Below, piece after piece: positions 3,308 to 55,470 of a stretch of 64,000 nt of DNA. The stretch's first letter is position 1. Every line of letters starts with the position of its first letter. The DNA comes from Mytilus trossulus (taxonomy: Eukaryota): contig NC_086382.1 in the NCBI RefSeq assembly GCF_036588685.1, forward strand, positions 55,800,001-55,864,000, in the 5' to 3' direction. Position numbers and translations under genes: made by a program. The notes under the pieces were generated by a model. It saw nothing but the letters and a program-made list of their open reading frames with translations. It was not told the DNA's origin and searched no databases.

Positions 3308-3680
3308 TGATAGTTATAAAGTTACCAGGATTCCAATTTAGTACACCAGACGCGCGTTTCGTCTACATAGGACTCATCAGTGATGTTCGTATCAAAATAG
3401 TTATAAAGCCAAACAAATACACATATGAAGAGCATTGAAAATCCGAACTTCCAAAAAGTTGTGCCAATAAGGCTAAGATAATCTATGCTTGGGATAAGAA
3501 AATCCTTAGTTTTTCGAAATTCAATTTTTTGTAAACTGGAAATTTATAAAAATGACCACATAATTGATATTTCTGTCAACACCGAAGTGCTGACTACTGG
3601 GCTGGTGATACCCTGGAGGACGAAACGTCCACCAGTAGAGGCATCGACCCAGTGGTGTAAATAATTATCAAAGTTACCAG
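3308..3680 (-). mobile_element. Non-LTR retrozyme monomer (~352 nt unit) with terminal direct repeat
   Basis: The motif aagttaccag recurs 352 nt apart (3319-3328, 3671-3680), and the unit contains an intact minimal hammerhead. Confidence 0.8.
3344..3385 (-). ncRNA. Type I minimal hammerhead ribozyme
   Basis: Minus strand CAUCA CUGAUGA GUC CUAUGUA GAC GAAA CGCGCG UC / UGGUG: intact core, stem II GUC/GAC, palindromic stem III, stem I CAUCA/UGGUG. Predicted cleavage is between 3349 and 3348. Confidence 0.85.
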
Positions 3681-13959: not shown

Positions 13960-14530
13960 TTACCGTTTTCTTATTAATTGTAATTATTATAATTGTTATC
14001 TATTAATCATGTGTTTCTTTGTCTAATATGTTCTCCTATTTATTTGTATTGTAGTCCTGTTATATTATGTTGTCATTTCAATGTTATATTTAACATTGCC
14101 ATTAACGTGCAAGGTTTGGATGCCACAAAACCAGGTTCAACCCACCATTTTGTCTCATTAAAATGTCCTGTACCAAGTCAGGAAGATGGCTCTTGTTATA
14201 TTATTGTTCGTTTCTGTGTGTGTTACATTCTAACTCTGCGTCGTTTGTTTTCTCTTATTTTTGAGTGTAAATTCACATTGCGATAAGACGTGTCACGGTA
14301 CTTGTCTATCCAAAAGTCATGTATTTGGTTTTGGGGTTATATTTGTTATTCTCGTGGGATTTTGTCTGATGCCTGGTCCGTTTCTGTGTGTGTTACATTT
14401 CAGTCTTGTGTCGTTGTTCTCCTCTTATATTTAATGCGTTTTCATAGGTTTTAGTTCGTTATCCCGATTTTGTTTTTTGTCCATGTATTTATGAGTTTTG
14501 AACAGCGTTATACTACTGTTGTCTTTATTG
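13960..14530 (+). repeat. Interspersed repeat (SINE-like/non-autonomous)
   Basis: Contains the aaaaccaggttcaacccacc..cctgtaccaagtcagga module also seen at ~19730, 20410, 33430 (-) and 56650. Its 3' tail gaacagcg.tatactactgttg is also seen at ~35960. Confidence 0.55.
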
Positions 14531-15959
14531 CTTAAGTTTTTTAAAACTTTTTTTTCTTTTTTTAAACTTTTGTATTACTTTTATTTTATTTTTGGTTTTA
14601 TCTTGATTTCTACATTTGAACTTATTTATTGATATTTGTTTCACTTGATTGGTGGTCAATCGACGATATCTCATTTATTTTTATCAACTTTTTGCCTCAC
14701 TTTAGTCATAAGCCTTCTAAATCAGAACCACAGTGAAAAAGGAATCATGTTACACAGTAACGATTTATATTAAGTATAACTGTCTATTGTGTTATTAAAG
14801 GTACTCGGAATAAGTATGTCACATGTATTTTAATTCTGGGTTGCAAATCGAAAGAACAAGAGGGGGAACAATTGTAACATCAAGTCCGAATATGGAATAA
14901 ATCAGCCAATCGGTAATGCATTTTATACATAACGAAACTAACGATACACACAGTATAAGGAAAACAAAATTCTACAATATCGAAAAAGTATGTTAGTTAA
15001 TAAGCTATAGGTCAGGAAAACATGGACAAAATGTTACAGCAACAAATCTGTCATCTGTATTAGGATGCCGTAAAGCAATCGTTGCGTAAAAGTAATGAAA
15101 TAATACATACCAACAATGTGATCAGTCAGACCTGTTTGCTTCATTAAATTTTAATCACGAATAAGACAAGGCATCATATTCTAAACTCCAGATGGAAATT
15201 TGTGCTTCATGTGGCTAACAACAAACATAGATGTCAAAGAATGTATAATATTGTGCATTGATGGAATCCTTCATCGAAGATTATTTTACGTTTTCTATAA
15301 TCCATGTCAAAATTGGTGATATATTTAAGACTTAACGTTCTACAGTTGACCTGCAAATCGATTTATTTATATAAATATTGGTTTCATAACAATTATTTCT
15401 TGTTGATTTTAATATTGCTGATAATTTGCTTGCGCTGTCAATATTCTTAAATGCACCAGTTTTTAGATTGATTGAATATCATAGTTTATGCCGTTTTCCA
15501 TATAACAAGTGTTTGCCTATTACCTTTAGGTGTTTTTCCATTTTATAAAACAACAATAAATCACAATGTTTTTCATCAGTAAAACATATCATATAGGTTA
15601 GGTACAAGTCCTATAATTTTTTTGAAATAATTAAGAATCATAATTTAAAACAAAATTAGATAGCAAGTAAACGAATTATTTGTTTGCATGTCTAAGCTCT
15701 ATTTCTAATACTGTTCAATATATGTCTTTGATTGTAGTTAGAAGCTGTAAAACAATCTATAAGATTTCACGAGTTGATGTTTTCTACAATTAAATCAAGA
15801 CGGCATCTGAACTTTCTTATGTGAATTACTGACCATCTTCATTAGAAGATAACCTCATTTAATTTTGCGTGATTTCCAATTAAATACTACATTGACATTT
15901 ACTACTAATATTCAGTATTCGTGGTTTTCTCTGTCGAATAGACATTTAAGGAAAACACA

Positions 15960-16130
15960 CTCATCAAAGATACCAGGCTTATTTTTTATTCAAGAAGTGT
16001 ATTTTGTCTACAAAAGAATCTTAAGTGTGTTCAAATAAAAAGACGTTAAAAGGAAATATTAATTACAAGAAATACTTATACAAATTGGACGAACATTGAG
16101 GACCCAAAATTCCGAAACGTTTCGCCAAAT
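15960..16130 (-). repeat. Degenerate retrozyme fragment
   Basis: atcaaagataccagg...gtctacaaaag...cattgaggacccaaaattcc...gccaaat is similar to 3315-3470. Confidence 0.5.
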
Positions 16131-16750
16131 ATAGTACTGAATGTCCCCCTCTAGTATAGTATATTAACCTCTAGTTCTATATTTTGATCTCTAGTACTCG
16201 TTGTTAATAACATCTATTACAGTACGTTGACTTCTAGTTCTTCATATTGATCACTAGTACTGTAAGTAGGTATCTAGTAATGTATGTGGTTCTTTTGCTG
16301 GGTGTTGTCTTCAAAGACTGTATGTTGCCCTCTTGTCCTTTCTGTTGCCCTCTAAAGATATTTATGGGCCTCATGTACAGTTTTCTACCTCTAGTTCAGT
16401 ATGTGGATTTCTAGTTTTGTTATTTGCCATCTAGTTCTTTACATTGCCCACTTGGGCAGTTTGTGCTTCCAGAACTGTATGTTGTCCTCTAATACGGAAT
16501 GTTTACATCAGGTACTATGTTGCCCTATTGTACTGACTTTTGCCATCTATTACAGTATGTTAACTTCTAGTTCTATATGTTGATATCTAGTTCCACATGC
16601 TATCTTTTGTTTTATATGTAGACATAAGTACTTTACGTTGCCCACTAGATCATTATGTTGACCTCCAGACTGTATATCGACCTCTATTTCTGAATATAGC
16701 TCTTTAGTAATGTATTTTGACCTCTTGCACAATATATTCTCCTCTAAAGA
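16130..16750. repeat. Degenerate ~21 bp minisatellite
   Basis: Recurrent ctctagtactgtatgttgac-like units. Confidence 0.7.
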
Positions 16751-17708
16751 TCGGAGTAAAAAATAAATACAAAAAGCAAACAATGCCACAATCTTATGCG
16801 AGAAAGGTAATAATATGATAGCACATGTCTTGTTTCATGACATCAGGTAAAACATTCGTTAAGGAGTTAAAAAAACAATTTTTAAATAGATATATTTTTT
16901 AAGGTAGAATACGTTTTATAAAAGTAAAGATCAAAATAAAATGTTATCTTTCATGAATAAAAAAAAAACCTGTGATGCAACGTTGTCTGTTGACGAAAGG
17001 CAGTGTGTTTTTATTAAAACCGGGTTGAATTAACTTTTAATATACAAAAACTCAGTTATTCTAATAGTTGATACGTTATGCAAAGTATGTGTGATATGTC
17101 CAGATTCCTTAATAGACACGTATACCATAAATTAGAAAAATAATTAAATAAACAATGACTTTTTTATAGTGGTCACTTGATTATCCAGAGAAATTAAGCT
17201 CGACCCAGAAGTTAAATACATAAAAAGTACTCAAAACATAAATACGAAATTACAAAAGCTCGACTAATAAGATAATCATGATATTATGCTTCTCAATTTT
17301 ACTGACTGCATACTGCGCTCTATATAGTTTTCGTTTATTTTTGTTTTTCCCCCTCTAATGGGGTGTCGTAAGGTGGCATACCAATTTACGTATATTCTGC
17401 CTCTTTTCTTGAACATTATACTAATGCAATAAAAACAGCGCTTCAGTAGTCCATATTCCATTTGAATAAATCCATTTAACTTATTTTGTTAGAAACAGAA
17501 ACTAGCAGAATGTGTGTGTTAAACCAGTAAAAATAGTTAAACCATTATGGTGACGTCAGCCTATTTATTTACCGTGGATCCTTCTTCTAGAATCAACGCG
17601 TCCTTAATTCGTCGCTGAAATGGACTCAAGATTTTATATTCTTTTGTTTCATTTGTGTGCCTAATTACATTAAGGTTGAATTGTCTACATTATCACAATA
17701 GTTTAAGT

Positions 17709-17811
17709 TATAGATACAATGGATAAGCGTTGATTCATGATAAACAAACCACTCGCCCTGCGGGCTCATGGTTTCTTTTTCAAGAATCAACGCTTATCTA
17801 ATGTATCTATA
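17709..17811. repeat. ~100 bp imperfect palindrome
   Basis: tatagatacaatggataagcgttgattc...gaatcaacgcttatctaatgtatctata around a GC-rich centre (gccctgcgggc). Confidence 0.8.
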
Positions 17812-18121
17812 TCACATAATTGTTCGTAGTTGTGACTAGTCACGTCACAAAGATTTCAATAAAACCATCATATAATTGATTAATCACTTCATGAAAAGGT
17901 ATTTGTATCTGTTACGTAATAAGTATGACAATGTACCGAGTGTCTCTTCAAATTATTCAACATCCTTTGAAGCAGCACATTAAGTTTGAGCATTTGGTTG
18001 ATGTAACAGTTATTCCACTTAACGGAGAATACTTTAAAATGACACTTTACTGGGAAAAGTATATTCCATTGAGTTGTTGAATAATCATTTCAAATTTGTT
18101 GTTTTGTGACATAGAAAACAT

Positions 18122-18812
18122 TTTACAGACGAATTAAGTCACATGGTACCCCGTGTTAATGAAGACAGATGGAATAAAACGCGAACCATGATGTACAAAC
18201 CCAGAAAAAAAATTGACAAAATACAGTAGCTAATTGTTTACGTTTTTTTGGCGGAGATTTCATAATCTTGACATTTGTAATCTTGATCCTTAACAAATAA
18301 AAAGCAAATATTGATATTCTAAGGGTTGTGAAATCTGCATTATTTATTAACGCGAGAAATACATAAAAAAAAAATGGAAGTTGTTGTGTCCATTTAAATT
18401 TCCGTATATCGAAAAATGCAGGGCAAGTTTTAGGAGAAAATGACCATTAGACCAATGTATTCAACTAGGTATATTTACAGACGAATTAAGTCACATGGTA
18501 CCCTGTGTCTATGAAGGCAGATAGAATAAAACGCGAACCGTCATGTACACACCGAGTAAAATGTTGACAAAATACATTAGCTCATTGTTTACGGTTGGGT
18601 TTTTTTGTGTTTGTAATCTTGACTTTTCTAATCGTAATCCCTCATCAAGTAAAAAGCTAATATTGCTATCATAAGAATAGTAAAATCTGGATGATTTATA
18701 AACGCGAGAAATAGATATAAAAGTGGAAATAGTTTTGTCCATTTCCGTATATCGAGAAATGAAGGGCAAGTTTTAGGAGAAAAATAACTACTAGACAAAT
18801 GTTATTCAACTA
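18122..18812. repeat. Diverged tandem duplication, ~350 bp unit
   Basis: tttacagacgaattaagtcacatggtaccc at 18122 and 18474; both units end gggcaagttttaggagaaaa...ttcaacta. Confidence 0.85.
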
Positions 18813-21428
18813 TGAATATTGTGATATTTTTTATATAATACATATATCTTATACTTTTGTGGCTCTTAAGATATTGGAAATCGTCTACATTCTTGCAGAC
18901 TTGCTATATTTTACACATCAAGTGCAGTGAACGCAAAAAAAGTAAGTCCCTAGGTATATTTTTGTGTTAAGTACGATGAATTAATGAAATTGCTTGGAAA
19001 GACACTTATAAGCTTAATAAAAGTACATGCATGCTACTTTTATTTATACTATTGTCTCGCCTTTTTTGAATTGATTTGTGGCGCAAATAAAATGCCAGCT
19101 GAACAAAATGTCAGACACTGTTATGAGGTTTAACCATTATTAAGTTTTGCAGTAGACGTGCAGATAAAGTAATTGCATACAGCTAACAACCAGTTGTATC
19201 ATCCTGTACTTCTATCACGAGGCACATTTAAATCTTGTTCTGCTAAACATTATAGCATACCTTGTGCATTGTTGAAGTATTTACAGTATATTTATTTGTT
19301 TATATCAATGCCATATCAAGGCTCTTCTTCGTGAATAGTTGTTTCATTGGCAACCAGTTCACATCTTCTTTTTTAACAATGAGAAAAAGTCCTCCTACAA
19401 GCACATACTACTATAAAGTATAAGGGTTATAACTAATTGCTCGTATGCTCTCGACTACTTATGTTAACTTCTTCTCTGTGCGTGTGTAATATAAATCCTT
19501 ACTGGAGGTTTTTGTTTTTACCCTAAATATTTACTTATTCGATTATTCAAATGTAAAAAATAAACAAAATAATAATGTTTCCAACTTTCTAAAAGAGGCA
19601 TGCAGTAGTTCGGGTTATTTATTTTAGTGTTTGCCTTGATCTCATCTTTATCAAAGGCCCTAGATGTATTTATGCAACTTTGATACATTCACATAAAGTT
19701 AAATTCATATCATACGACCTGGTAGCTATAAACCTCGGTTAAATCCAGGATGTTTAACATTAGACAGTTCTTGTACCAATTCAGGAATATGACAGTTGTT
19801 ATTTTTTTTTTATTTGGATATTTGATTAGAGACTTTCCGTTCCGAATTTTCATCTGAGTTCAATATTTTTTTGATTTTAATTTTTCTCTTGAATGACGAT
19901 ATTATCATAAGGATATTTGTATTGTGCTTTACGTTGAGTTTATAATTTATCTATTCGTCTCATAAACTTTATTTATTGACAAGGAAATAGGTAGAAATGG
20001 CATTGTTTTATTTTCAATATTCATTTGTATCAACGAGATCGTGTAAATTTTCACAGTATCATTGATAAATCATAATACTATAGTGAAGAATGCCTATAAA
20101 CAAATTTCATCATTAACAAAAGTAATTCCAAAAGAGAAGATGTTTCTTGAGCTGTAAATTGATCTTTTGTTTATGATCTTTCCAATACATTTTTGTCGTC
20201 CTTAATCAAATTTGTTAGTTATGTTCTTGTTTTGTCTGACATATGTTATATATTGTGTTATATTATTGGATATCAATGTTCTTCCTTATTAATACAATGC
20301 TTATCAAGTATTCCCTTAACATTGATACATTTACAATATTTAAAAAAAAAAATCATAAAAGCGTTCATTTATTCATCGTTGTCTTTATAATAGAGTATAC
20401 ACGACTGTCATACAAGTGAGAGGTTTAGGGAGCAATAAAACCAGGTTTAATCCACTATTTTCTACAAGATAAAACCTTTACAAATTCATATATGAGAGTT
20501 TTGTCATTTCGTTTGATGTTTATGAGCTCCTGATTTTGCAATTTGTTTAGAGATTTTCCGAGGTCAGTATTTTTATGATTTAACTTTTAACACCCTTGCT
20601 CACAAACACAACTATCTTTTATTGGCACAAAAGTGACTTTTGAAAGAAAAAACGTTAAACTAGAATGTAAAAATTAATTCCATTAAGGCTGTCTTGTATA
20701 TATTCACTCCTATGATTTATTCAGTTGATTGAAATGTATTTGCTGAAATATGTTATGGTTCGGATTTTGTAAATGACATATGTCTAACTGTTAAATTGGA
20801 ACTGAAGGGATACTGCAGATTATTGATAATGTTTATCAAAGTAGTTTTGGAAAGTATTCGTTTCAATTTGTTTGATTTGGATTTGTTGTTTTAAAAATTA
20901 ATTTCGTCTCTCCATATTAAAAAAGGACTTGGATGACCAGACAGACTCTTTTAAATTTCGACCCCAGGTTATTGACTCTACAAAATCTATTGATGTGTTC
21001 CAAATGCAATACGTTTTAACGTGCATTTTTTACGTCTTCATAGCGATGAATAGAAATTGTACATATTTAAAATCATCTAGACTTCTTAGGTTGAGCTTTT
21101 TGAAAAATTGGAAATTTTACACATTTACTATGTCCTGTAACGAACACTAAAAAATACTAACAAAGCAATTCCCTTTCCAATGTGCAAAGATATGACAAAG
21201 TTGATGTTTGCTGCGTACATGTAAACATTATTGTCAGTTTTGTTATGTGTTTTTCTATTTTTATCTTACACGGTTAATTAAGAACATCGTTTCAGTGTAT
21301 GAGTTGTAAAGAAAGTGCTGTGGATGCGCTTAAAGAGACAATACAGAAACTGACCTAGTTTTTCGTCCGACATCTTGGGATGACCTTGAATGCAGTTGCG
21401 GTCATCAGCTTTGCCCCAGTGATGGCTT

Positions 21429-21960
21429 TGTTTGAATATGTTTGTTAGCTTGTTGGTCATGAATGTGTGTCTCTAATATTTAATTAACTGTGCATTTGTA
21501 TTCAGATATTGCAGATCAAATTTATTTGTTCATTGTGTAATCATACGTTTTTTGATTGAGTTAAGTCTGCCAATTGATATTTTATCGTGTGTTTTTCTAT
21601 GTTGTGATGTTATGCTATTGTTTCAGAAAAAGGGAGAAGGTTTGGATCCATTAAAACGTTTAATCCCGCTGCAAATGTTTGAACCTGTCCTAAGTCAGGA
21701 ATCTGATGTACAGTAGTTGTCGTTTGTTTATGTAATATATACGTGTTTCTCGTTTTGTTTATATAGATTAGACCGTTGCTTTTCCCGTTTGAATGGTTTT
21801 ACACTAGTAATTTTGGGGCCCTTTATAGCTTGTTATTCGGTGTGAGCCAAGGCTCCGTGTTGAAGGCCGTACTTTAACCTATAATGGTTGACTTTTTAAA
21901 TTGTTACTTGGATGGAGAGTTGTCTCATTGGCACTCACACCACATTTTCCTATATCTATT
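21429..21960 (+). mobile_element. 5'-truncated copy of the same Naiad 3' end, inverted relative to the full element
   Basis: Near-identical reverse complement of 23873-24421 by visual alignment; both copies end ...gcactcacaccacat(c/t)ttcctatatctatt. Confidence 0.9.
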
Positions 21961-23133
21961 ATTTGCGGTTAGTTTTATTTCCAATAGGCGACTTTTTTAT
22001 TTTGTTATGTTTTTCAAATGCACTTAATTTCTTCAACGTCAGTTCATAAAGGTCATACAATTGTGTCGACACAATTTCTTTGAAGTTTTGTCTAATTGAC
22101 ATATACCTCTGGACTATAATTTATGTCAATTGAACAAATAATGATAGGGTTGGTGTAAATCATTCTCCGATTGTAGACGACAGAGTTGTGTTTAGAAGCA
22201 ATGAATGTCAGAAAATTTGAATTACTGCTTCATTAGACGTGTCTAGCTCTCATATAAACAAGCTTAACTTAATTTCATTATTTTTTTTCTATTCATTGTA
22301 AAGGTTTAGGAAGGGATTTTAATGTCTCTACAGAAAATGTATATAACTGTTTATGATTTCAAGAGTTCTTGCTGAAATAATTGTTCAATTCGTTTGCAAT
22401 ATCATTGTTTATACTTGTTTATAGTAAACACTAATATGTTTTAACGATTTTCCTTTATTTTCTTACACTTATTTGCATTTAATAGATACTAAAAGTATGT
22501 ATAATGTTTATGGCACTAAAATGGTGAAAAGATGTAGCTATATGGCGCCTATCTTCAAAAAATGGTTACAATTATTTTTTTTAATGCGCTACTATTCAAT
22601 GAACACTAAAACAAGTTAAAAACAATAATGAAGATAGTCGTTATCCAACACGTCAGTACCGATTTCTGAAAATAGCAGATAAACATTTAGAAATAGCACT
22701 TTAAGTGTTGGAATGTGGTAGTTTCAAAACATTTCCTTGAGAAATAAAATAATCTGTAGCACTTTAATGATAAGTTTAGTCGTTTGAATAAATTTACTTT
22801 ACAAATAAGGAGATTTGATTGCCAACGAGACAATTTTCAAGCAGAGTTTAAACTACACTGTTCTTAATTGACAATTTTTTTTCAAAGCAACTTCTAGTAA
22901 AACATTTTCATATTCATATTCATGAAAAGTTTATCGAATACTTATATTTTTTTTGAACTAGCAAAAACAACTTAAGTTTTCTCTGTTTTTATTATTTAAC
23001 AAAAATGATAGAACCACTTCAATCAGTCAAAACTTATTTTATTCATATGAGACCGATTTGGTTTCTTGAGAATAAAATATTTATAAAAGAACAATTTTTA
23101 GAAAGATTTGATATCAATTATGTCACCACTTAC

Positions 23134-23202
23134 AGTCCGGATCCCCAGGAGCAGTAACGTCCCAATGTTGTAAAACTGAAAACTACGCTTTACAATTTTC
23201 AT
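23134..23202 (-). CDS. Candidate first coding exon, signal-peptide-like (MKIVKRSFQFYNIGTLLLLGIRT)
   Basis: ATG at 23202, 23 codons, then a consensus GTAAGT donor. No downstream exon was identified. Confidence 0.2.
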
Positions 23203-24695
23203 GCGTCGTCTCTTATATATTAACAGATTAAATTTCTTATGTATATTAATTGAATTATTTTGCATAAAAAATAAGCTAAATGTTATCATACACTAAGTAC
23301 TATGTCAATTTTCTTCATAAAAATAGTTTTTAATATAGTTGTACTTGTTATATCTTACATAAAGTACAACTTTTCCCTAAAACAGATAGAAAGTGTAAAG
23401 CCTGAGATAAGTAACGGTCAATTAGCTTCTGGAGTGAAATATAGGTATTAATATTCAAGTTTAGGTTGTTATGCAATTTAAGGTAGATTCATGGTATACC
23501 GCCATCTTGCATTGTATAATCACAATACAAAATCGGTCTAGTTATTTGCCTCAATCTGCAAATTTGGAGACATATTTGCTATTCAATGGTTAGACTGTTT
23601 TTCTATTTAAAGAAAACTTGTTAATTAATCGTATTATACATAATATTTTAACAAATATAATCTGTTTTGGTTTTAAAATAAAAAATTTTCAAATGAGCCA
23701 TTTACGGTGAAATAACTCTTTTAGTACAACATTTATACTGGGCTAATAGGGATTTTTTTTATTTTTACTTGTAGCAAGAAAACAAGTTCCTACTATGTTT
23801 GACCTTAAGTCATATAGCAGCAACCAAATATTTATATCTTACAAGTTATTCTGTTGGCGATAAAATCATCTGAATAGATATAGGAAGATGTGGTGTGAGT
23901 GCCAATGAGACAACTCTCCATCCAAATAACAATTTAAAAATTAAACCATTATAGGTTAAAGTACGGCCTTCAACACGGAGCCTTGGCTCACACCGAACAA
24001 CAAGCTATAAAGGGCCCCAAAATTACTAGTGTAAAACCATTCAAACGGGAAAACCAACGGTCTAATCTATATAAACAAAACGAGAAACGAGAAACACGTA
24101 TATATTACATAAACAAACGACAACTACTGTACATCAGATTCCTGACTTAGGACAGGTGCAAACATTTGCAGCGGGATTAAACGTTTTAATGGGCCCAAAC
24201 CTTCTCCCTTTTTCTGAAACAATAGCATAACATCACAACATATAAAAACATATAAAAACATACGATAAAATATCAATTACCAGACTTAACTCAATCAAAA
24301 AACGTATGATTACACAAAGAACGAATAAATTTGATCTGCGATATCTGAATACAAATGCACAGTTAATTAAATATTAGAGACAAACAGTCATGACCAAAAG
24401 GCTATCAAACAAATTCAAACACACTGAGAAATATTTAACCAATCAATGTTCACTTTAGAAAAAAAACGTTTTTTTATAATCTTGAAGTTTATACAAATGT
24501 TGTAAGAATAAGTGAAAAATTGAAGATATTACAAATAATCAAAGCTGGTATACAGCCAAGATCCATATAAATAAAAAATGACAAAAAAGCAGTATAAACA
24601 GTATCAACAGGTCGAATTAACAAGAAAATACGATTTGAGAGTACTCGCAGTTACTGACAGCTAGTTAAAAGCCAAAACCAATTAATAGTAAAAAA

Positions 24696-24779
24696 TCATG
24701 CATCAGAGACTAAAATCGACTAAAACACATCACAGGGATTTAGTATTTTAACGTCATTAATAGTCAAAGAAGACATGAC
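24696..24779 (-). promoter_or_regulatory. Eukaryotic SECIS element (form 2-like) in the retroelement 3'UTR
   Basis: Minus strand reads GACUA UUA AUGAC GUUAAAAUAC UAAAUCCCUGUGAU GUGUUUUAGU CGAU UU UAGUC. Helix I is GACUA/UAGUC, the core is UGAC/CGAU (tandem G.A/A.G), helix II is 10 fully paired bp (WC/GU), followed by an apical A run and an AUC/GAU mini-stem. Confidence 0.88.
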
Positions 24780-24900
24780 TAGTGCAATGCCAAAAATAAA
24801 TGTATCGACAGGTAGTAGTATAGTGAAGAGCGACTTCTATAGAAATAAAAGTTAACGTGGCTGTGTCCCCTATACATCTCGTCTCAAAAGATAATGAAAT

Positions 24901-27900
24901 TTAGTTATGTTTTAATTTGCTAATGACAAAATCAATATTAGTGCCAATGTGAACTATATTCAGAGATCTAATTACAATATTGGTACGATAACCCTTACTT
25001 ATAAGTTTGTTTAAAGGTTCGATGAGTTTACAAGGATCACATAGTGATTTCCTCGCTTTAAGTACAATATTACCATAAAATTTAGGATGAGAAATACCAT
25101 TTTTAATAAGCTTTCTACAGGTATAGCCAAATTTACTAATCAAATCTTTGTATCTATGAAAGAATTTAGTAAAAGTTTTAAGTAATTTATGGTATCGAAA
25201 TCCCTGACACAACAATTTACCAGTGATGCATTGATTACGTTCGTTAAAATCTATGACATCAGAACACACACGGGCAAACCGAACGAGTTGCGATATATAA
25301 ACACCGTATGATGGAGCTAAAGGCACATCGCCGTCTAAAAAAGGAAAATTAACAATAGGAAATGAAAAATCGTCTCTTTTGTCGTAAATTTTAGTGTGAA
25401 GTTTCCCGTTTGAAATTGAAATGTCTAAATCTAGAAAAGGACAACTGCTGCTGTTTATGTTAGATTTAGTTAAAGTAAGTTCGTTTGGGTAAATTTCTGA
25501 AGTATATTTAGAGAACTCTGGATTATTCAACGAAAAACTATCATCCAGATAACGGTAGGTATTTTTGAATGTATCAACCAAATGTAACAATGATGGGTCT
25601 TTACTGAGTTTGGTCATAAACTGAAATTCATAGCAATATAGAAATAAATCTGCTATTAAAGGGGCACAGTTGGTGCCCATAGGAATACCTACTACCTGAC
25701 GATACACTTTATCGCCGAAACGTACATAAATGTTATCAAGCAGAAAGTTTAAAGCTTCAATCATATCCTCACATTTCCAGTAAGTGTATCTAGCATACTT
25801 TCCTTTTTCGTTACAGAAAAAGGCCTTAAACGAGTTACAGCAAATAAAATTACAATGAGATTTTTCGAAAGACCATTTTATCAAATACAAAAACTTTTTC
25901 TTTATAAGATTGTGTGGAAGTGTAGTGTACAGAGTAGAAAAATCATAACTGTCAACAGAATTGTAAGGACCATTGAAAGCATGTATTTTATCTAAAACCT
26001 CTAAAGAATTTTTAACACTCCAAAAATAATTAATACCATTATTTTCATAAGCTTTATTACAAAAGTTAATAACCAGTTCTTTGATAGTAGTAAGGGAGGT
26101 GGTTAGAAGCACTGATAGATTAGTAGTAGAACACTTACTCGAAGCGGAGATGAAACGGAATTTAAATGGTTTTTTGTGTAATTTCGGTAACCAGTACATG
26201 GTAGGGACTTTCAAATGTTCGGAAGATGCTTTAAACTGGGCAGTGGCAGTGGTATGCTTGTTAACGATTTGACTCTCTGTGGTGCGCACTGACCTGAATG
26301 TAGAGGAATTTATTATTTCGTTTTGAAGAACTGTCGTGTAGTATATGCGTCACACCACCACTACATTATTTGCTGCCTTGTCTGCCGGTACGAACACAAA
26401 CCGCTCTGCGAGTACCTTGAGTTTGTTTTTTATTCTAGAAATGGGTATATCATGGTTCCTATTATTAATTTCAGAATTGTTTTCTAAATGAGATATTCGA
26501 ATATCAACAGTATTCATAATTTTATTCAAATAACTGTCTAAAGATTTTTTATCGAATTTTTCACGTTTGCACCAATTTTTACAATAGGCAGACAGAGCGT
26601 CTTTAATGACCTGACGACACTGTTTCCAATCTATTGTAGACGGAGGACGGTATTTCGGTCCTTTCTTTAGAAAAGTTATGACTTCACGGTCATCGACTAT
26701 GTTGAGGTCTCCTGTGATAACATGACCATAGGGAACATATTTAAAACTAGATGTTTCGCAATCTCAAGTGGAAGGAACATTATTTTCTATATTGACGTCT
26801 GTTGTAATTGACGTATAATTGAAAATCAAATGTCTGCTCGGTTTTTTATAAGAATACGAAATAATGGGTTGTTCTATATTATCAAAATATGGAGGTATTA
26901 AGCTATAGACAGAAGAGTCATTGAATATGCTAGACAAATTAATAAAATCAATACCTCTATTTATATATTTTAATTTGAGAAAATGTCGTTTACGATTTTC
27001 AGGTTTATCAATAATAGGAAAAAGCCTGTGATGACAAAAGGCTGTAATAATACGGGTGTATCCATAAAATGGGCTAAAAAAAGAAATTTTATCACAATCA
27101 AGAAAAATAGCATATAATTTACTTATAGGTATCTGACCCAGTTTGCATAATACTTGATGTCTGCCATTATTCTTTATTATAGATAACAGATCAGCAAGTG
27201 TATAATTTATACGATGTTTAATACGTTGATTGCGGTTCTTGCGTTTACCATGAGACCTATTATTTCTAAGTCGTTTATCAACAATATTAATGACATCGAT
27301 ATGAGTTTTAGATATGTTCCCCTGCCCTAATATTTTATCATTTAGACCGAGAGGATAAGCTGTTTGAAGTCTTTTTATCCAAAACAATTCGCGAACTTCG
27401 CGTGATTTTTCAAATTGCTTGTGTGATTCTCCTGGTTGTTTTTGAACGGTTTCGAGCGGTTGGAATTTTATATATTTCAGAATATGATTATGCTTATCTA
27501 AATGCTGATATACTAAACTTTTGAATTTTTTGGGTCTACGAAAGCGGTACAGATGTTCTTGATTTCTTCTGAAATACTCTCGTCCCGTCTGTCCCACATA
27601 TTGAATACCACACTTAGGTTGGGTTCAAGTTACCACATATATTAGGTTTTGAGTTTTTCAGGTAATATCACAGGAAAAGGAAAGCGAAAAGGTTCTCCCG
27701 TTCACTGTTGACCTTATAGTATTTTGAGAAGTTAATCTAAAACAAGTTAGTCATTTTTTGGCATTGCACGGGAAAATTTGTGGATATCCACGTGCATTTT
27801 TGTTAAATAATCTGGCTGTAGTGGCATTACCAATACGTTTATTTATGCACGTAGATAACCTAGAAGTTGTGTTGTTGATAATATTTTTTGTCTTCTGTAT

Positions 27901-27966
27901 TACACAGATTATAATTGTAAGTTTTCAAGAGGAAAAAAAGGCCACTGTCAAAAAGGAATGAATCAT
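24901..27966 (-). CDS. GIY-YIG endonuclease/reverse transcriptase protein (~1020 aa) with 5-6 in-frame UGA codons, predicted selenoprotein
   Basis: Hand translation joins track ORFs 26764-27597 and 24901-26289 in the same frame. The only interruptions are TGA at 27751-53, 27658-60, 27625-27, 26764-66 and 26350-52, plus 27925-27 if the nearest upstream in-frame ATG (27966) is used. The frame ends at TAA 24901-03. The start codon is uncertain. Confidence 0.88.
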
Positions 27967-28859
27967 GACAAAAATGAATGAATCATGACAAAAATTTATG
28001 CAATATTTCGTATTATACTATATATGATGTGTCCCCGTCGAAAATGGATTATAAATCTGATGAAGATGACAACAAACACATTTAAAATAGAGAGACTATT
28101 GATAAAAGATTCATTTACTGATAGAAACAAGCTATACAAATTATTGGAATTACTTTTGTTAATGATAAGATTTATTTGGCGCCCTTTTATAATTCAGATG
28201 TTATAACATATTATTCACAAAATGAAAGAATTACACGATACTATTGACACAAATGAATATTCTGCATTATGGGAACCCCTGATATTGTTTAGAATAATTA
28301 ATTGATGATAAATTAAACCACTATGTAGCCAAAATATTTTTTTGTCTTTCTTCGCTTATGCTTGACCTCACGGTGATATAAAAAATGACACCCTGTAAAG
28401 TCTCCAGGTTAAATAATATTTTTTTGATTTTGCAATTTCAGACATTAAATAATTTCCTTATCATGGTAAAAAGTACATTCTCCTCTCAAATAAAAGACTT
28501 ACTTTGCTAACTCAAGTTACTTTATATAACATTAATTACAGCAAATGCACCATGTATGTGTGGCATTGAAAGTGTAAAATTACGACCATTAGCTTAGAGT
28601 GCGAGTTTATCGAATTATTTTTTTTTATGTTCCCAGACATATTAAAACGAAAACCGATCTATTACAAACTTTGCTTTTAGAGAAAGATATTTCACGTAAA
28701 AATACACATAGCATGTTTCATGAAATATTACTAGATGTCATTTAACTCATGTTGACTACATTGAAAATATAATAACTACGTTGTAATCCCGACACATTCT
28801 TGTGGTCCTATTTTTCACATACTGAAATATTTCTATTGTTATTTTCTTTTTCGCCAATA

Positions 28860-29270
28860 CTTGGGACAGCGGTTAGGACATCCTAGCTAAGATCATCCTC
28901 AACTAGCTTCGATGTGCATGCTGAGAAATGTTGTAAGTCGGTCCTAATTTATCATAATGTATGTCCTAAGAATGTCTTATAGGACCGATCTTAATAGGAC
29001 AGTTTCGATAACATAAACATCTAAAAATGTTATTATGTAACAAAAATATTTTCTTTTAAATGAGAAAAAAAATCCTTTATTTACTTGCACATTTCTTTAT
29101 AATTTAGGCATTAATCTTAATGCCTGCAAACATTTTTCATTATTTAAGCTTAAATCCTAGGATTTAAGACTAATGCCTAACATCATTTAGGCAATAGACT
29201 TACTGCCTAAGCGTTAGCTTATTGCCTAGGATTTAAGCTTAATGCCTAATTTCACTTATTGCCGCTAACA
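28860..29270. repeat. Low-complexity arrays of short inverted motifs (taggac/gtccta; taggcattaa/ttaatgccta), likely MITE remnants
   Basis: Repeated motifs visible in both orientations. Confidence 0.45.
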
Positions 29271-30737
29271 TATATACCGGTATTTATATATCTTTACTTC
29301 TACATTTTCTTTTTCAGATGTGTGATGATATAAGAAAAGTGTGTTGAAAGAATTTCCCTCTTTTCCAACATTGACTTGTGCACTAGGATTTAAACATTCC
29401 TCTGTAAGGTAGGTCGAAATTATTTTTTATGTCTTAATGTAATCCTTTTAAATAATAATATTCGTGTATCCTATTGCTGTCTCATTGGAAATCATATTAA
29501 TGATTAAAGGTATAGTAGCCCTTGTACATGAGACAAATCAAAACTAAGAGAATATCAGGAACTGCAAAAAGAGTTGCGTCCACATGATAAGTGTTTGATT
29601 ATATATAAGTCTGCATTATCCTCCAGGCGATTCATCACTCAGTTTAAATGTCACAAGTGTCGACTATTCTTGCATCTCAGTTCGAAGACTGCGAACACAT
29701 GTTGGGAATGTATTTCGGCACAGTTACTGCTTTAAACGGCATCAAGGTAGAATGATTGTAGAAATATTCGTACATATATAAATTTAGCTGCGGCGCCGTA
29801 GCTCTTAGGTCCTTATGTTAATTTTCTACTTTTTCAGGACCATAGAGCTACGGATTTTTCCTATTTCAAAACGTTCGACATTGCGACCTAGGTTCAGGTG
29901 GCACTTATTTCTCAACAATTTATTGTTTATAATCAGTGCAAAGCTTTTCAATATATACAGTTCGTTTCGTTATATTTTTATCAAGAAATGACGTACCTAA
30001 ATAAATAGATAATGTTTTAATAGGATACTAATTTAATCTTGTAATTTTTTGACACTTATCAATTCACGGAGTCAAACTTCATGGCAGAGTGCAAAAACAG
30101 TCGATATACGCCAAAGAGACTCTATATTCATTTCTTAAGACAATGACACTACCCCAAAAGATATCGGTATATCATATATGATTTAAAACTGGCTGATTGG
30201 AAGTGAAACAAGCCAAGTAAAGAAAACACGTACATTCTTGGTTACTCGTTTCCTTTATTGAAGTTTGGTTGTCAGATTCCTAGAATCATTGCATGAAAGT
30301 ACTTTATTATCACTGGTAATTCGATGTGATTAAAAATAATGAAAGTTCGCTTGAAGTTAATTCAATACCAGATAAATGGACTGTGTTACTTCCTATACAA
30401 CTCACTAGTAAAGATAAATCACAAAGGCTTACATAATTTATTTTGTATCAGGAATGTTTTTATTTTATCAAATCTGACGACTTGTTGCTTTTATTGGAGA
30501 CTGAAACATTGCTTGTCTAACATATTGGTTTTAAAGTAACTGGACTTTTCCAATCGCCATTATGTATAGGACGAAAGTTATCATGTGTCTGTGCTTGATA
30601 TGTTTGTCATACTTTCGACAAGTCTCGTATAGTCCATCGCATATTCATACTGGTTCTGCAGTTGAACGTGTCAAGTACGGATAACCGGACCTCGAAAATT
30701 ACTTGACAGTGCCAGAGACCACACCATAAATCATATA

Positions 30738-30947
30738 CTGTTCATTCATTATTATTCTTTGGAGTCCAGTGTTCGTGGGTTTCGTGGGTACAGGTGAACC
30801 ACGAGGTCAAATATTCAATGTATTACAAAATTTCTGTAAGCTTTGTATGCAGAGATTAGCAAACCCACGAAATCAAATATCCACAAAAATTCGGGTCATC
30901 CCCAATCCACGAAAAATTGATACCCACGAAAATAAATGAATCCACAG
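30738..30947. mobile_element. TA-flanked MITE (Tc1/mariner-like)
   Basis: ta|ctgttcattcatttatt ... aataaatgaatccacag|ta, with internal ttcgtgg/ccacgaa repeats. Confidence 0.7.
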
Positions 30948-32240
30948 TAACTGTTTTTGTCATGTGCTTAGTCGTGAATTTAAGTCGTAGATATATCCAT
31001 GAAAATGACAGGTTTTTTTTGTCTAAAATATTATTCATATTGACTACACTTTCTTACTTCTTTGGTTGTATCCTAACATGATGTTGGGACCATCTTCAAT
31101 ATTGAACCTTCATATAAACTATGCCGATTGTCTCTCTATGTAGAATTAATACCTATACGCAATCTATTAAAGACACACTATCAATATAATATAACAATGT
31201 TAAATTTTATTGTTTTTACAAAAAAATAGATTCCTAATAGTTTAAAGCAGTGACATGGTGTACTAATGTATGCATGGGGAAAAACATATGGAATTGACAC
31301 AACCCCTTAATCGCGACGTAAATGCTGATTTTTGCAATTCGTGCTCTCGCAATTTGCAGTTGTTTCTTCGAGGGAGTCCAAAAGCAAACTTATCTCATTC
31401 GTCATTTCAATGCTACAGTAGAGCTTTCATCTCAGAACAAAAGCGTACATTTAATGTTGCCTCAGAGTGTCTTTTCTTACATAAAGTAAATGACTTTAGA
31501 GTTATGTTGAATAATCTCTAAAAAATGATAGGTCAATTTAAACTGACAAATTCAAATGTTAGACTTTATCAACAAACAGAACGAAAATCAAACCACTATT
31601 ATGTTCCGGACTTGGTACAATAATTTTTTGGAGTGAAATTCTGAGTTAAACCTGGTTTTACAGCTATGTAATCCCCCACTTATATAAAAGAGGGACGAAA
31701 GATACCAAAGGGATAGTCAAACTCATTTATCTAAAATAATCTGACAATGCCGGGGCTAAATATGCAAGAGACAAACAGACAAACAATAGTACACATGACA
31801 AAACATAGAAAACTAAAGAATAAACAACGCGAACCCCATATATAACAGTCGTGCATACTCATTGACAAATTAGGTGAGTAATTCCAACAGACATAATACG
31901 TGACAATAATTTGTATTCAGCAGACAAAACTGTATAAAAACACTTCGCAGACATACAACACAAAGAATAACAATTGCAAACAACCAAACAGATAAATCTA
32001 GTAATGACGCCAACAATGTTTTTAAAGATATCATGTTGTTCAATATTGACATTATCTATTCTAGGAACGCATTTGCTAATTTTGGCGGTAAGAAATTGTT
32101 GTTAAAGAGTTTGTTTTATGAATACTCGAAACCAAATTTTCGTGTATATCATTAAACAAGAAAAAGGATATTTTAAGGATGTTTACTAAATAAAATATAT
32201 CTGCATATCATATTTTTTTAAATTGTCTCAAGACTTTGAA

Positions 32241-32605
32241 GGTGCAAGAAAATTGGTACCGTTAATTTCAAACTACCACTGGGTCGATGCCTCTGCTGAT
32301 GGACTATTAGTCTCCGAGGGTATGACCAGCCCAGTAGCCAGTACATGAAAATGCGGATTTTTTGTGTTATTAAAAATTGCTGTTACAAAATATAAGAAAT
32401 TATTATAAATTAAGGAATGTATCTCCCTCATGCAAAACTCTTATTCCTTTCACGGATTCGGTTATACGTTTTGGACCTTTAAGATTATAGCTCTTCATCT
32501 TTTGTATAAACTTCGGACTTCAAATATTTGGCCACGAGCATCACTGAAGAGACATGTGTTGTCGAAATGCCCATCTGTTGCAAGAAAATTGGTACCGTTT
32601 ATTTT
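32241..32605 (+). mobile_element. Retrozyme monomer of a second subfamily (~336 nt unit)
   Basis: Direct repeat tgcaagaaaattggtaccgtt at both ends, a hammerhead at 32538-32581, and a structured domain shared with the 3308-3680 copy. Confidence 0.78.
32538..32581 (+). ncRNA. Type I minimal hammerhead ribozyme, slightly degenerate
   Basis: GCAUCA CUGAAGA GAC AUGUGUU GUC GAAA UGCCCA UC / UGUUGC: core CUGANGA and GAAA intact, one stem I mismatch, non-palindromic loop III. Confidence 0.72.
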
Positions 32606-35004
32606 GTTAAGGATGGTGGAATTTCTAATTTAATTAAGCATAATATTTACGTTCTTGTTAAATCAATCATACGTGGAAAGAATCGGTGTTCTTTTAAAAA
32701 TTTATCAAGGGGTTTAAGAGCTGTAAGTTATCCAAAATATGATGTGTGTGTTGTTTGCGTACTGAAAAGTTGTCTTTACCAGTTGTGGTTTAATTTCAAA
32801 TATGACCACCATATCCTTTTCTACCAATAAATGAAATGCTTGAAAAAGTATGGATAAAACAGTCTGAATTTTGATTTTGAAATGTGATTAAACGCTTAAA
32901 AACATTAACGGGTTCTAACACAGAATGAATGTGGTCAGAGAAATTGAAAAGATTAAATTTACTTGAGACCTTCTTCGACTTCTTTTTTTATATCAACTTC
33001 TGCGCACAATTTGAGTGTGTATGTTTTTTTCTCGTTCAGCAATTTGATTTACAAAAGTCGTTAACAGCAAGCACTATCGTGAAGTGGCTTTTAATCAGAA
33101 CCGATTCACTGAATATTGCCTAGCATGTACAACATATAAAGCAAGAAAAACATAAATAATTCAAAATAACTCGTTTGAGATGATGAGGTATTTCTTTAAG
33201 TGTTACAATTACTGTAGGTGAGTGCATCATGATAATTTATAACTTGGTGATAGTGTAATTAAAATTTAGAGCTTAGTATACTATTTATGTGTCTGTTTTA
33301 ACCATTAAATCTTCAAATCAATCATTCATTTGTTTCTGAAGAAAAATCAAATAACAAAACTACCGAAATCCGAAGAATATGCAAAAACTGAAATGGCAGC
33401 AACAAGTGATGAAAAAAACATCAAACGAATGGACAACAATTGTCATATTTCTGACTTGGTACAGGCATTCTCAAATGTAGACAATGGTGGATTGAACCTG
33501 GTTTTATAGCGCTGAACATCTCACTTGTATGACAGTCACATCAAAATCACTTTTTTGATGCGTTTAATAAAAAACAGACATAATAGGTAAAATTAAAAGG
33601 AACAAATCTTGATTGCTGAACTTAAGATTGGTGGTTGGTCATCGGCCTATTGAAGTACTGGGGCTCAATAAGTATATATGTGAGGACAGACAGTTTGTTG
33701 AAATATCGATCCAATCGATTCAAGAAATATGCAGGCGATGAAAACGTTCACTACTTTTAGGATATTAACCGAATATAGTGCGATATGTTTGCCTATTCAA
33801 GATATCGCTAGAAGCTTAGTCTGATGACGGATTACCGATAACGGATTCAGAACCTCCTGCTTCTTAAAAGGGTTAAATACTTCAGTGCCCATTTGATGTC
33901 GTTGATTTCGAAGCGCTCTGACCAGTTTTGGTCAATTCAGGTAAAGCTATAATAAAGTCGTATACTTTTGTTTTTCATGTATCGTTCAAAGGTTTTTGAT
34001 GTAATAGAATAATTATACTGTGCAACGATGATTATACACATTATTGGTACTTCAGGATTGTACATAATGTATACTTCATTTGTAAATGGTTAAAATATGT
34101 TATGTATTGTGAAATTGGAATGGGGTGTATGGAAGAGGAAAATGTATGTCGTGGTATTGATAATGGTTTAAGTAGAAAGTGTAAGTGGTTCAATGGCTAA
34201 TCAATCTCATACTACTTTGTAAAATTCTTTATAAAGTATGATAACAATGCATAAAAGCTAGCTAAAACTTTTGATAACTCATTTGCTTATTATAAAAAAA
34301 GTAGTGCAAATTGTGTTTCCCACGTAATCAACACGACGTAAAAATCATGCTACAACTGTCATGTTTTAGTATTATCACAGATCCAGAAGACCCATAAATT
34401 TTACATTAGAAACAAGTTAAATATATTTTGAAGAGATAATATACATTTTCACTTCTTCTGCACTGATAAACATATTCCAGTTAATTATACTCAATCATGA
34501 TTTTAACACCGCAGCAAGTTTTGTTCAGAATGTTCGATTAGTGTGCTTGGGAGATTGCAAGAATCTTAAATCGATAGTTTTACATGGTCTTTATATTATA
34601 ATAAAAAAATGTTAATGTCACATCTGGATATGTGTTTGAAAGCTATTTGCACGCATGTCCATTAATTAAATCACAACTTGTAACCAGATAGAGCTATGTC
34701 ATGCCACTTGCGTGACTACATTCTGAACAGGCCTTGCTTAAACGTCTTTGTCAGATTCTCAACAGGCTACTTCCGCATTGTATTACAAAGGAATCAGTTC
34801 CTATGCTGAACTTTATATAGAAATAATCTTCTGAATCAATACGTACATGAAAGAAAAGTACTTGTCAAATTTAAATGGTGTGCCTCCCCTAACGTTGCTG
34901 TAAGAGATTATAAGAAAATAGATTAATTGTTCTAAAATGTATTTAGAATAGGATCTGTTTAAATATGTTGTAAGGAACGTGCATTTTTATCCGTTGCAAC
35001 TAAT

Positions 35005-38048: not shown

Positions 38049-39714
38049 TTACACAGGGAAAAGTGCCACGCGTGTTTTACGTATATTTTACATATGTTAA
38101 ACATGTGTTTGGTAACGCATGGGAAACATCTTTTTCCTACCACACATGTAAAACGCATGTTTTAAACATGCGTTATTCATGCGTTTTACGCATGAATAAT
38201 ACATGTTATGTAAAACACATGTTAAAAACATGCGTTTTACGCATGAATAATACATGTTATGTAAAACACATGTTAAAAACATGCGTTATTCGTGCGTTTT
38301 ACACATGAAAAATATATGTAATGTTAAACGCATGTTTCAAAACCATGCGTTAAGCATGTGTTGTAAGAAACATGTGTATAATATGCGTTTTAAATGATGC
38401 GTATAACATGTGTGAAACAAACATGCGTATAATGCATATATTTCAAATCATCCATAAAACCTTTGTCAAGTTAGCTAGTTCACATTCCATATGTTCCACA
38501 AAACCAAGACGACTTCTGTTTACTTTTGAAGGCTGTTCCCTAGACATAATTGCTTTAATCAGTTTAATTTGGACTCTGTTTGGTAGTAGTCCAATTGGCA
38601 GCATACAACATCTTTTTATGTTTATTTTGACCACAAATCTCCTTTCAACAAGCAACATCAGTATCATATTACAGACAAGACTTCACTTTTCATTAGCTCT
38701 GTTTGAATACACCAATAAACAAAAGAAATGTCTGTAACACGATTTTCATGTTTCTAAAACCTTTATCAAGTACATTTGACACTAAGATGTTTGAAAAGAC
38801 AATGATATGAAATATTTGATGGAATAAAAACCTACAATCTTTGGTCTCTGTAGTTTCATTGGCAGTAATACCACAACTCTTTTATACAGAGGTCAAAATT
38901 ATCTTAAAAAAATTTTGTGGAATGTTGTACATGTATTTGACAATTTTTGTTAAAATGTTACTCATGGTTAAACTAAAACGTACACATTTGTTGGCTTATG
39001 CATATAATACATGTAATATGAAAAGGAAAACCCAAAAAGTGTATTAATGGTTCCTTTAGCATCAATTTAAATACAATTTTGAAGTTGTGTCCCTTGCATG
39101 TTAAATGATCTGAGACTGTATAATTGTTTTTAAACATATTAAATGAAAAAGTCAATAAATCTGCTTAAGAATATATTTATATTTTTTCTCTCTGTTGTCT
39201 ATTTGTTGCAGAATATAAATTTGAAAAAAACTTGGATTTTGATTTCACTCTACTTTTATTTACAGCATTCTCAAAACGTTACAATCAACTTTTTTTTGTT
39301 TTTGTTGTTGACATAATAACATTATCAATTGAATGTTCTTTCTTCTAAATGTCACTCTCCTTGATGTTGTCTTTATCTGAAAAGAAAACAATAATATTCA
39401 TAATCATACATTTAAACTTAATTTGATTTATTCCCATATACTGTAAGTTGTTAGTTTTAAACATACTTGTAATGAAATAACCTCAGTGACTTAAAACATG
39501 CTTTTCTGTCTCATTTTTGTCTCTTGTGGAGAGTTGTCTCATTGGCAGTAATACCACATCTACTTTTTTTATATTTTTCTCCTTTTGATATAACATATTT
39601 GAATAAAACTGGAAAGTATTTTATAAATATAAATATTTGTTTTGCTATCAGTAAATTAAAACCAAACTAAATATTATTGTTATACACATATGTATGTTTA
39701 CCAGTTTTACAAAC

Positions 39715-39960
39715 TGTTGATACCTATATTTTGGCATTGTACAAGATCATGTTCTTATCCTATGACTAATGGCGGTATATTCACTAAATCCATTAGATGT
39801 GTACTGATTGATATTTAAGTCTCAGACACATGATTTTTGGTTTTACATTTGGCATGAGTTTTGCTTATTTTAAATTCTTCTTCAATGGTCTCTGGTAATG
39901 CTGGTGGAGAGTAATGACTCATTGGCAGTTGGCAATCATACCACATCTTCTTATTTTTAT
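39715..39960 (+). mobile_element. Decayed Naiad-related 3'UTR fragment including a SECIS relic
   Basis: 39715-39840 aligns by eye with the reverse complement of 24690-24812 (tg.tgatac..ttttggcattg..catgt..gacta..ctaaatcc..gatgtg..gat..agtctc.ga..catgattttt). The shared 3' tail ttggcaatcataccacatcttc follows. Confidence 0.7.
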
Positions 39961-49200: not shown

Positions 49201-49714
49201 AATATTTATTGATATAATTTTAGCTTATATTTCTTATGTTAAAATTTCATTTTGAAATTTCAACATTCGCATATTTCAGGGCTTGTATGTTAATACCAAA
49301 TATTTGAAATAATGGTTTGATGTTTAAAAATAACTTTTCATGCAATGATGATTGGTTAATAATACAAGTCATCACTCTAAATGTTTACGACCAACCGCAT
49401 GATTTAGTGATTGTACATGAATCTTTAAAAAATGTTTTTAGAGCAATCAGGATTATACTTTGGTCCGAAATGTGATAATTTCTACGTCATAAGAGTGGCA
49501 CTCGAATAATAACACTACATCGGGCAGAGGGTTCAAAGTTTATAAATTTCAGAACCAAGATTTATAAAGATATACATTTTTTGCGTTCAACATTGTTTAC
49601 ATTATTCTCCAAACAATTACTTTTAGTGTATTCCTAAACATAACTTAATCAAGAGTTGTTTGACATTTATGAAATATCTATTTCACAGATAATGACGGAT
49701 ATGTTTTAATATGA

Positions 49715-50120
49715 AATCATCCCTTCGTAAATTTTACGGACGCCATCGCCAATTGGTTGACCAATATTGAATAACCGTTTCGCAAATGATATCGGATATG
49801 TTCCTTACGTTGTAACTTCAATCCCCTTCCCTTTCATGAATGTGAAATACTACCGAATTAGACTACTTACCGGATTTGTTATCATATAAGCCACACGACG
49901 GGTGCCCCATATGGAGCAGGATCTGCCTATCCTTCCGGAGCACATCAGATCACCCCTAGTGTTCAGTGGGGTTCGTGTTGTTTATTCTTTAGTTTTCGAT
50001 ATTGTGTCATGTGTACTATTGTTTGTCTGTTTGTCTTTTTCATTTTTTGCCATGGCGTTGTCAGTTTGTTTTAGATTTATGAGTTTGTCTGTTCCTTTGG
50101 TATCTTTCGTCCCTCTTTTA
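49715..50120 (+). mobile_element. Shorter 3' fragment of the same second PLE family
   Basis: Colinear with 55110-55460 and ending ggtatctttcgtccctctttt. Related tails occur at 1-80, 31686-31840 (-) and 44697-44830 (-). Confidence 0.7.
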
Positions 50121-54939: not shown

Positions 54940-55470
54940 CTGAAATATTTACCAATTGTGAACTTTCAATTTCAAAGTGGCAACATTCCAGCACCAACTG
55001 CATACAGGATATACATCTCCTAATTGATTCGATTTTTCCCGTATTTGGGTTTCCTATCATGATAGAGGGTTAAGGCTGACAAGGAAGCTATTGAACCAAG
55101 AGTTCTAAAAGTTGAAATCATCCATTCGTAAATTTGACGAACGCCATTACGAGTTGGTTGACCGTTATGGAATAACCGTTTCACAAATTATAAAAGATAT
55201 GTTCCTTACGTCGTAAATAAAAACCCATTTCCTTTTCATTTATGTGACCTACCGAATTAGACTATTTCCCGGATTTGTTATCACATAAGCAACACGACGG
55301 GTGCCACATGGTGAGCAGGATCTGCTTACCCTTCCAGAGCAACTGATATCACCACCGTTTTTTAGTGGGGTTTGTGTTGCTTATTTTTTTATGTTCTATG
55401 CTGTGTCATGTGTATTATGGTTTGTCTGTTTGTCTTGTTCATTTTTAGTCATGGTGTTGTCGGTATCCGT
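54940..55470 (+). mobile_element. Decayed 3' end of a second PLE family (RT C-terminus plus 3'UTR)
   Basis: Broken frames give PIVNF, GNIPAPTAYRIYIS, DRGLRLTRKLLNQEF and LKSSIRKFDERHYELVDRYGITVSQ, homologous to FPIVNFPFL..P.APSYGVYISQL of the intact element. Confidence 0.75.

Follow-up and report, generated by a model that had tools for sequence, protein, structure and literature searches.

Selenoprotein-encoding Naiads with SECIS elements were published in 2021 from clams and spiders, when Craig et al. (PMC8557442) described four of these Penelope-like elements with three or four UGAs each. Their SECIS elements were reported as grade A type I structures located 1-21 bp past the stop codon. 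It was predicted there that more Sec-Naiads had been overlooked in bivalves, and SECIS donation by truncated copies was already proposed; in the parts of that account drawn on here, no selenoprotein mark is attached to the Mytilus Naiads. A literature search, with subscription papers outside its scope, returned only PMC8557442 on Sec-Naiads. Here we describe a Naiad and its 3'UTR hairpin in a 64-kb stretch of DNA from the mussel Mytilus trossulus (the window, to which all positions refer). By the sequence features tested, the element is a Naiad that encodes a selenoprotein and brings a SECIS of its own. We put at about 90% the probability that the SECIS-shaped hairpin recruits the host Sec machinery and that full-length copies read five UGAs as selenocysteine, yielding one 1001-residue endonuclease-RT. 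Judged by the sequence comparisons below, the new aspects are the Mytilus host, the five putative Sec sites including one in CxC, and covariation within one genome that also holds Cys-coding controls.

The window contains a 5'-truncated copy of Naiad family A, 4016 nt long, at 23874..27889 (-). Its ends are those of the match to other copies in the genome, which extends from 27889 to about 23874, with 99.2% identity to the full-length copy L117. In full copies, at least 260 nt lie upstream of these 4016 nt. The ORF (24901..27889, -), open only if TGA encodes a residue, specifies an N-terminal GIY-YIG endonuclease, a KR-rich block, CxC, GxKY, DKA and the RT, and it ends at a TAA stop (24901..24903, -). 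With TGA read as U, a single frame of 1038 codons runs from 28017 to 24901 (-). In other copies an ATG located 17 nt upstream of the 27889 junction opens a protein of 1001 aa. The window copy is without these first 17 nt of the ORF, including the ATG, and its first in-frame Met is found far downstream, at 26517. With its start codon lost to 5' truncation, the window copy is probably not translated. Considering that both the ATG and the 5'UTR are missing, the SECIS of this copy is likely a passenger. A sixth TGA at 27927-27925 was rejected as a recoded site, being outside the element, in the flank upstream of 27889. It is noted that an out-of-frame, ATG-initiated ORF of 26 codons (27827-27747, -) in family A copies shares sequence with the 5' part of the main ORF and stops shortly after its first UGA. 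A separate, inverted family A 3'-end fragment without SECIS lies at 21429..21965 (+, 94%), and short palindromic direct and inverted repeats occupy 29099-29258, upstream of the element.

A Pfam scan of the ORF protein returned 0 families, and 259 relatives of the protein were found. The GIY-YIG domain with the CX2-5CxxC and CCHH motifs ahead of the RT was recognized from motifs aligned to homologs, several of which carry PF01541. The KR-rich block, CxC, GxKF/Y and DKA are all present when matched against the Naiad description in PMC8557442. Further Naiad traits, a body of 3.4-4.4 kb, a ladder of 5' truncations and a high copy number, were also observed, and no hammerhead ribozyme was found in 22000-32000, the lack of a canonical hammerhead being a Naiad trait. 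A type I hammerhead ribozyme unrelated to the Naiad element is present elsewhere in the window (3343-3386, -; 38.9 bits against an Rfam cut-off of 34). The clam elements Naiad_Scon and Naiad_Mmer resemble the mussel element in having an N-terminal GIY-YIG, CxC, DKA, an RT and a SECIS in the 3'UTR, and, as described in PMC8557442, in placing UGAs on the Cys ahead of GIY-YIG, the first Cys of CCHH and DKA+8. By eye, both clam proteins also share the endonuclease word VNGRTF and the longer UxxPxC spacing, the published clam sequences being outside our trees. They differ from the Mytilus element in host and in number of UGAs, three or four in the published account compared to five here. Among the spider elements, Naiad_Sdum is alike in having Sec at the second Cys of the CX2-5CxxC finger, and both Naiad_Sdum and Naiad_Smim have Sec before GIY-YIG and at DKA+8, together with a type I SECIS. 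The spider elements, likened here by description and not by alignment, are of independent origin with a reduced IFD according to PMC8557442.

The five in-frame TGAs were placed in an alignment with 32 homologs. TGA 1 (27751..27753, -) is at the second Cys of the CX2-5CxxC finger, TGA 2 (27658..27660, -) at the Cys ahead of the GIY-YIG motif, and TGA 3 (27625..27627, -) at the first Cys of CCHH; at each of these positions 30 of 30 homologs have Cys (2 gapped) and the sister family B has TGA. TGA 4 (26764..26766, -), at the first Cys of the Naiad CxC, corresponds to Cys in 32/32 homologs and to TGT in family B. TGA 5 (26350..26352, -) is at DKA+8, eight residues past DKA, where Cys is found in 31/32 homologs and Trp in 1/32. 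A UGA in CxC is absent from the list of sites in PMC8557442, and one in the CX2-5CxxC finger is listed there for spiders only. In alignments of genome copies, which are overlapping and taken from best-match loci, the TGA is kept in 38/40, 40/40, 40/40, 51/51 and 55/56 cases, respectively. Exact matches in the genome at the DKA+8 site comprise 183 with TGA versus 1 with TGC, the latter being a gapped 93% fragment, so that nothing points to a Cys-coding master copy of family A. The family B ORF encodes 1002 aa, with four TGAs at family A sites. The two families share 63% amino-acid identity, with pN 0.24 and pS 0.74 (synonymous sites saturated), which indicates purifying selection on the frame across the UGAs.

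The hairpin with its lower stems spans 24696..24778 (-), as defined by the sequence itself, Rfam SECIS_1 and the predicted fold. The 5' core AUGAC (24757-24753), of which AUGA is also present in family B, faces the 3' core CGAU (24718-24715) in tandem G.A pairs. On top of these sits a C.C, where U.U is commoner; the family B core is UGAU. Helix II (span 24719..24752), identified from the sequence, the fold and covariation, is formed by the 5' arm GUUAAAAUAC (24752-24743) and the 3' arm GUGUUUUAGU (24728-24719), which pair at 10/10 positions with 3 G-U, 6 A-U and 1 C-G. The 14-nt apical loop contains AAA at 24741-24739, 12 nt after AUGA and preceded by U24742. Below the core are helix I, GACUA (24765-24761) with UAGUC (24712-24708), and an outer stem, UCAUG (24778-24774) with CAUGA (24700-24696), all on the minus strand. 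The AUGA begins 144 nt 3' of the TAA (24903-24901, -), and the hairpin starts about 122 nt past the stop, compared to the 1-21 bp reported for the published elements, from which the CGAU core also differs. The original prediction had placed this structure, base by base, on the sense strand with the 144-nt spacing, and every one of these details can be read from the sequence; its placement in the retroelement's own 3'UTR is likewise borne out.

For the 104-nt region, the fold energy is -22.6 kcal/mol with a z of -3.49, a stability reached by 0/200 shuffles. In both the MFE and the centroid structures the apical loop stays open. The AUC/GAU mini-stem that had been proposed within this loop is able to pair, but it is absent from both structures, aligns poorly to the SECIS_1 model and would consume the third A. 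Between a type I and a type II apical form of the family A hairpin, the latter having an extra mini-stem, the modelled folds favour the open loop.

Rfam SECIS_1 (RF00031) aligns to the hairpin over all 64 positions (24708-24765, -) with 28.4 bits and an E of 0.031, the best of 6 matches in a 10-kb scan. The covariance-model check suggested for the hairpin thus gave a full-length match whose score is lower than the gathering score of 35 bits. In a scan of the whole window with Rfam, the hairpin was absent among the 8 matches at E up to 5. Compared to RF00031, the hairpin has the AUGA/GA core, the 10-bp helix II, AAA 12 nt above the core, the internal loop and helix I; it is unlike the family in its score and in having C where G or U precedes the 3' GA. 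The published SECIS core is UGAN/KGAW (Mariotti 2013, PMC3753652), and the C of CGAU occupies the K position, in contrast to UGAU in family B. According to the part of the work of Clery 2007 (PMC1874613) used here, SBP2 needs a non-Watson-Crick pair above the G.A tandem. The C.C of family A is still non-Watson-Crick, and the next pair, G.U, is of the purine-pyrimidine kind described as favourable in the same paper. The essentials of a SECIS have been given as the tandem G.A pairs and the AAA motif (PMC2761289). The hairpin shows a 5' RUGAN and a 3' GA (24717-24716) able to form that tandem, a fixed-length helix II with apical AA, and a position in a sense-strand 3'UTR downstream of in-frame UGAs at Cys-homologous sites. 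The description as a canonical SECIS was slightly overstated: the AUGA/GA core, the complete helix II and the AAA agree with it, while CGAU, the sub-cut-off Rfam score and the mini-stem do not. In our reading of the sequence, CGAU weakens 'canonical' but not 'SECIS-like', and the identification as a eukaryotic-type SECIS in the 3'UTR of the retroelement is supported.

The sub-threshold covariance-model score could also be taken to mean that the hairpin arose by chance in a UTR rich in AU and that the TGAs are ordinary nonsense mutations. In a SECISearch-like pattern scan of our own design, which counts helix pairs out of 10, the 10/10 pattern appeared in 0/1000 dinucleotide shuffles of the 1027-nt 3'UTR (at least 8/10 in 12/1000), and across both strands of the 64 kb the hairpin site was the sole match at 10/10. 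Nonsense mutations would also have to be reconciled with TGAs that are nearly invariant across family A copies (38/40 to 55/56) and with four TGAs common to a family of only 63% identity. A chance origin is contradicted by the TGAs and the homologous SECIS held in common with family B, and we regard it as the least credible of the explanations considered.

A genome search with RF00031 gave 4 matches over the cut-off among 130 scored of 42490 candidates, and all 4 belong to Naiad family B. The family B SECIS begins 61 nt past the stop and scores 40.2-42.9 bits in these 4 variant copies and 32.3-32.8 bits in 5 loci. It is homologous to that of family A, with 72% identity over 65 nt of the 5' side and both helix II arms aligned gap-free, and the two families agree in their AUGA, AAA and GA motifs and in how these are spaced. 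In helix II, 3/10 pairs are changed on both sides and 4/10 on one side. Of the helix II cells, 96.7% are paired, with 2 unpaired, compared to 30-48% in slid registers. The set consists of two families in 6 non-independent rows, and 188/500 shuffles reach the two-sided pair count; within those bounds helix II covaries between both TGA families, covariation being one of the checks proposed. One helix II pair is an A.G mismatch in the common form of family B. A decayed relic of a diverged Naiad 3'UTR in the window (39708-39838, +; 74% to family A) spans the SECIS region, with an AUGG core and UGAU on the 3' side; it was rejected as a covariation row for being too decayed. Aside from the SECIS, the best-kept 3'UTR segment is a 43-nt block at 24140-24182 (-), 84% identical between families A and B. 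It is a candidate cis element for retrotransposition by its conservation, and no common fold of the block was evident in the two families.

The core and helix of family A fold at -6.8 kcal/mol, against -11.6 kcal/mol in family B, so helix II is weak. The CGAU core, the 3 G-U pairs and the Rfam score below that of family B could mean that the hairpin of family A is a SECIS that has weakened or is in decay, and that family A relies for its mobilisation mostly on the protein of family B or another Naiad, acting in trans. Such decay sits poorly with a family A frame that is under purifying selection through all UGAs (codons 52-381: pN 0.28, pS 0.70), with the many family A copies that are about 99% alike and have long open frames, and with a fifth TGA in family A that is absent from family B. 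We consider decay of the SECIS very unlikely. The lower mismatch of the SECIS than of the CDS in family A copies (0.15% vs 0.51%) was set aside as evidence, the loci having been chosen by similarity to the SECIS region.

Two Cys-coding Naiad families, C and D, are found in the same genome. The matched ORF of family C is Cys-coding and without in-frame UGA. Its N-terminus is near-identical by eye to that of Naiad_Mgal, which, like Naiad_Mcor, is a Cys-coding Mytilus Naiad; this likeness agrees with a Mytilus host. Rfam gave no SECIS_1 match in 3/3 family C loci at E up to 10, and no SECIS pattern was found within 1097 nt past the stop in families C (1 locus) and D (2 loci). Fragments of family D 3' ends also occur in the window at 49712-50121 and 54949-55464 (+), with 85-91% identity. 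Families A and B, with UGA and SECIS, form one clade separate from family C, which has neither, and from family D (SH-aLRT 100) in trees that are quick searches on a subset of the 120 relatives listed; in the first tree P0010 and P0044 were mis-cut, and the second left out 5/32 chosen proteins (P0004, P0006, P0009, P0033 and P0044). That the hairpin corroborates the UGA pattern, as first proposed, is upheld by its presence in both TGA families, by its not being found in the Cys families C and D, and by the covariation of helix II.

Trp is found at DKA+8 in 7 of the 120 relatives listed (P0004, P0008, P0009, P0012, P0014, P0015 and P0067), and all seven fall within the clade of families A and B in the first quick tree; to judge from their sequences, they may mark further hidden Sec-Naiads. 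These Trp residues, known from protein alone, would also suit a reading of UGA by a non-Sec route, such as a near-cognate Cys or Trp tRNA or RNA editing, with another job for the hairpin, for example in RT recognition. They are explained equally well by gene callers translating TGA as Trp, and such a route would leave aside that the TGAs occur only on conserved Cys sites and that the AUGA, AAA and GA motifs with their spacing are maintained between families while the hairpin is not found in the Cys families. Moreover, five leaky read-throughs in succession would yield almost no product. We judge a non-Sec route to be even less probable than decay of the SECIS.

Selenocysteine recoding is the reading we prefer, and components of the host machinery were identified in the genome: tRNA-Sec with anticodon UCA at 2 loci, and SepSecS as six exon matches in one cluster. 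Tandem arrays whose ~890-900 nt units each contain a weak match to tRNA were also observed (G000:C10:63843916-64492367), and one locus near these arrays contains tRNA-Ser and tRNA-Cys. By analogy with established SECIS biology, a full-length RNA would be translated from the ATG, the tandem G.A pairs would form a kink-turn bound by SBP2, and eEFSec would deliver Sec-tRNA at the five UGAs. Sec would then replace Cys at putative metal-binding motifs and at the DKA+8 site, and a single endonuclease-RT would be made. Transposition would depend on UGA recoding because all of the RT lies behind UGAs.

The 43-nt SECIS sequence from core to core has 483 exact copies in the 1.3 Gb genome, compared to 0 for the reversed control. 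SECIS matches outnumber DKA matches, which suggests some hundreds of truncated copies with the SECIS and without the UGAs. A metagenome scan gave 5 loci, consisting of 3 near-identical family A copies, 1 short fragment and 1 Cys-coding Naiad whose UTR is limited to 35 nt, and no further SECIS variants were found among them. In a search across sequencing runs, no RNA holder was on record. In the unstranded RNA runs X22-X24, depth is ~1-8-fold over the SECIS and the RT end with almost none over the endonuclease, and the reads pile on the last 350 nt, with loose ends that indicate short copies inside other transcripts. With coverage this sparse along the ORF, above all in its endonuclease part, and with unstranded reads that gather at the 3' end, a full-length element transcript is not supported. 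One contig of run X1, which may be DNA, covers the RT, the stop and the SECIS. In the RNA reads over 14001-34000, the element had no spliced host gene around it, so that local SECIS donation to a host gene is unsupported. In run X19, about 20 sense small-RNA reads of 30 nt with a 5' U cover the SECIS 3' arm (24694-24723, -). This run has further 30-nt piles on the two strands of the 3'UTR; all of these small RNAs are piRNA-like and may be copies of few molecules.

With this finding, the hosts of selenoprotein-encoding transposons come to include a mussel in addition to clams and spiders, as the authors of PMC8557442 predicted. To annotation tools, Sec-Naiad ORFs look damaged, and selenoproteome surveys can be confounded by the fact that the SECIS_1 matches with the highest scores in this genome are transposon-borne (4/4 over the cut-off among the 130 scored). 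On a broader and more doubtful view, Sec recoding might have had a single origin, in a Naiad lineage of bivalves common to clams and mussels, and might still be spreading to further sites (CxC in family A), making retrotransposition dependent on selenium and SBP2, with several hundred truncated copies scattering intact, ORF-less SECIS, some of which may convert host UGA stops to Sec or compete for SBP2. If true, the dependence on selenium and SBP2 would be a nutrient gate on a transposon. With two Sec and two Cys Naiad families in one genome, the mussel provides a natural side-by-side set on why a transposon uses Sec.
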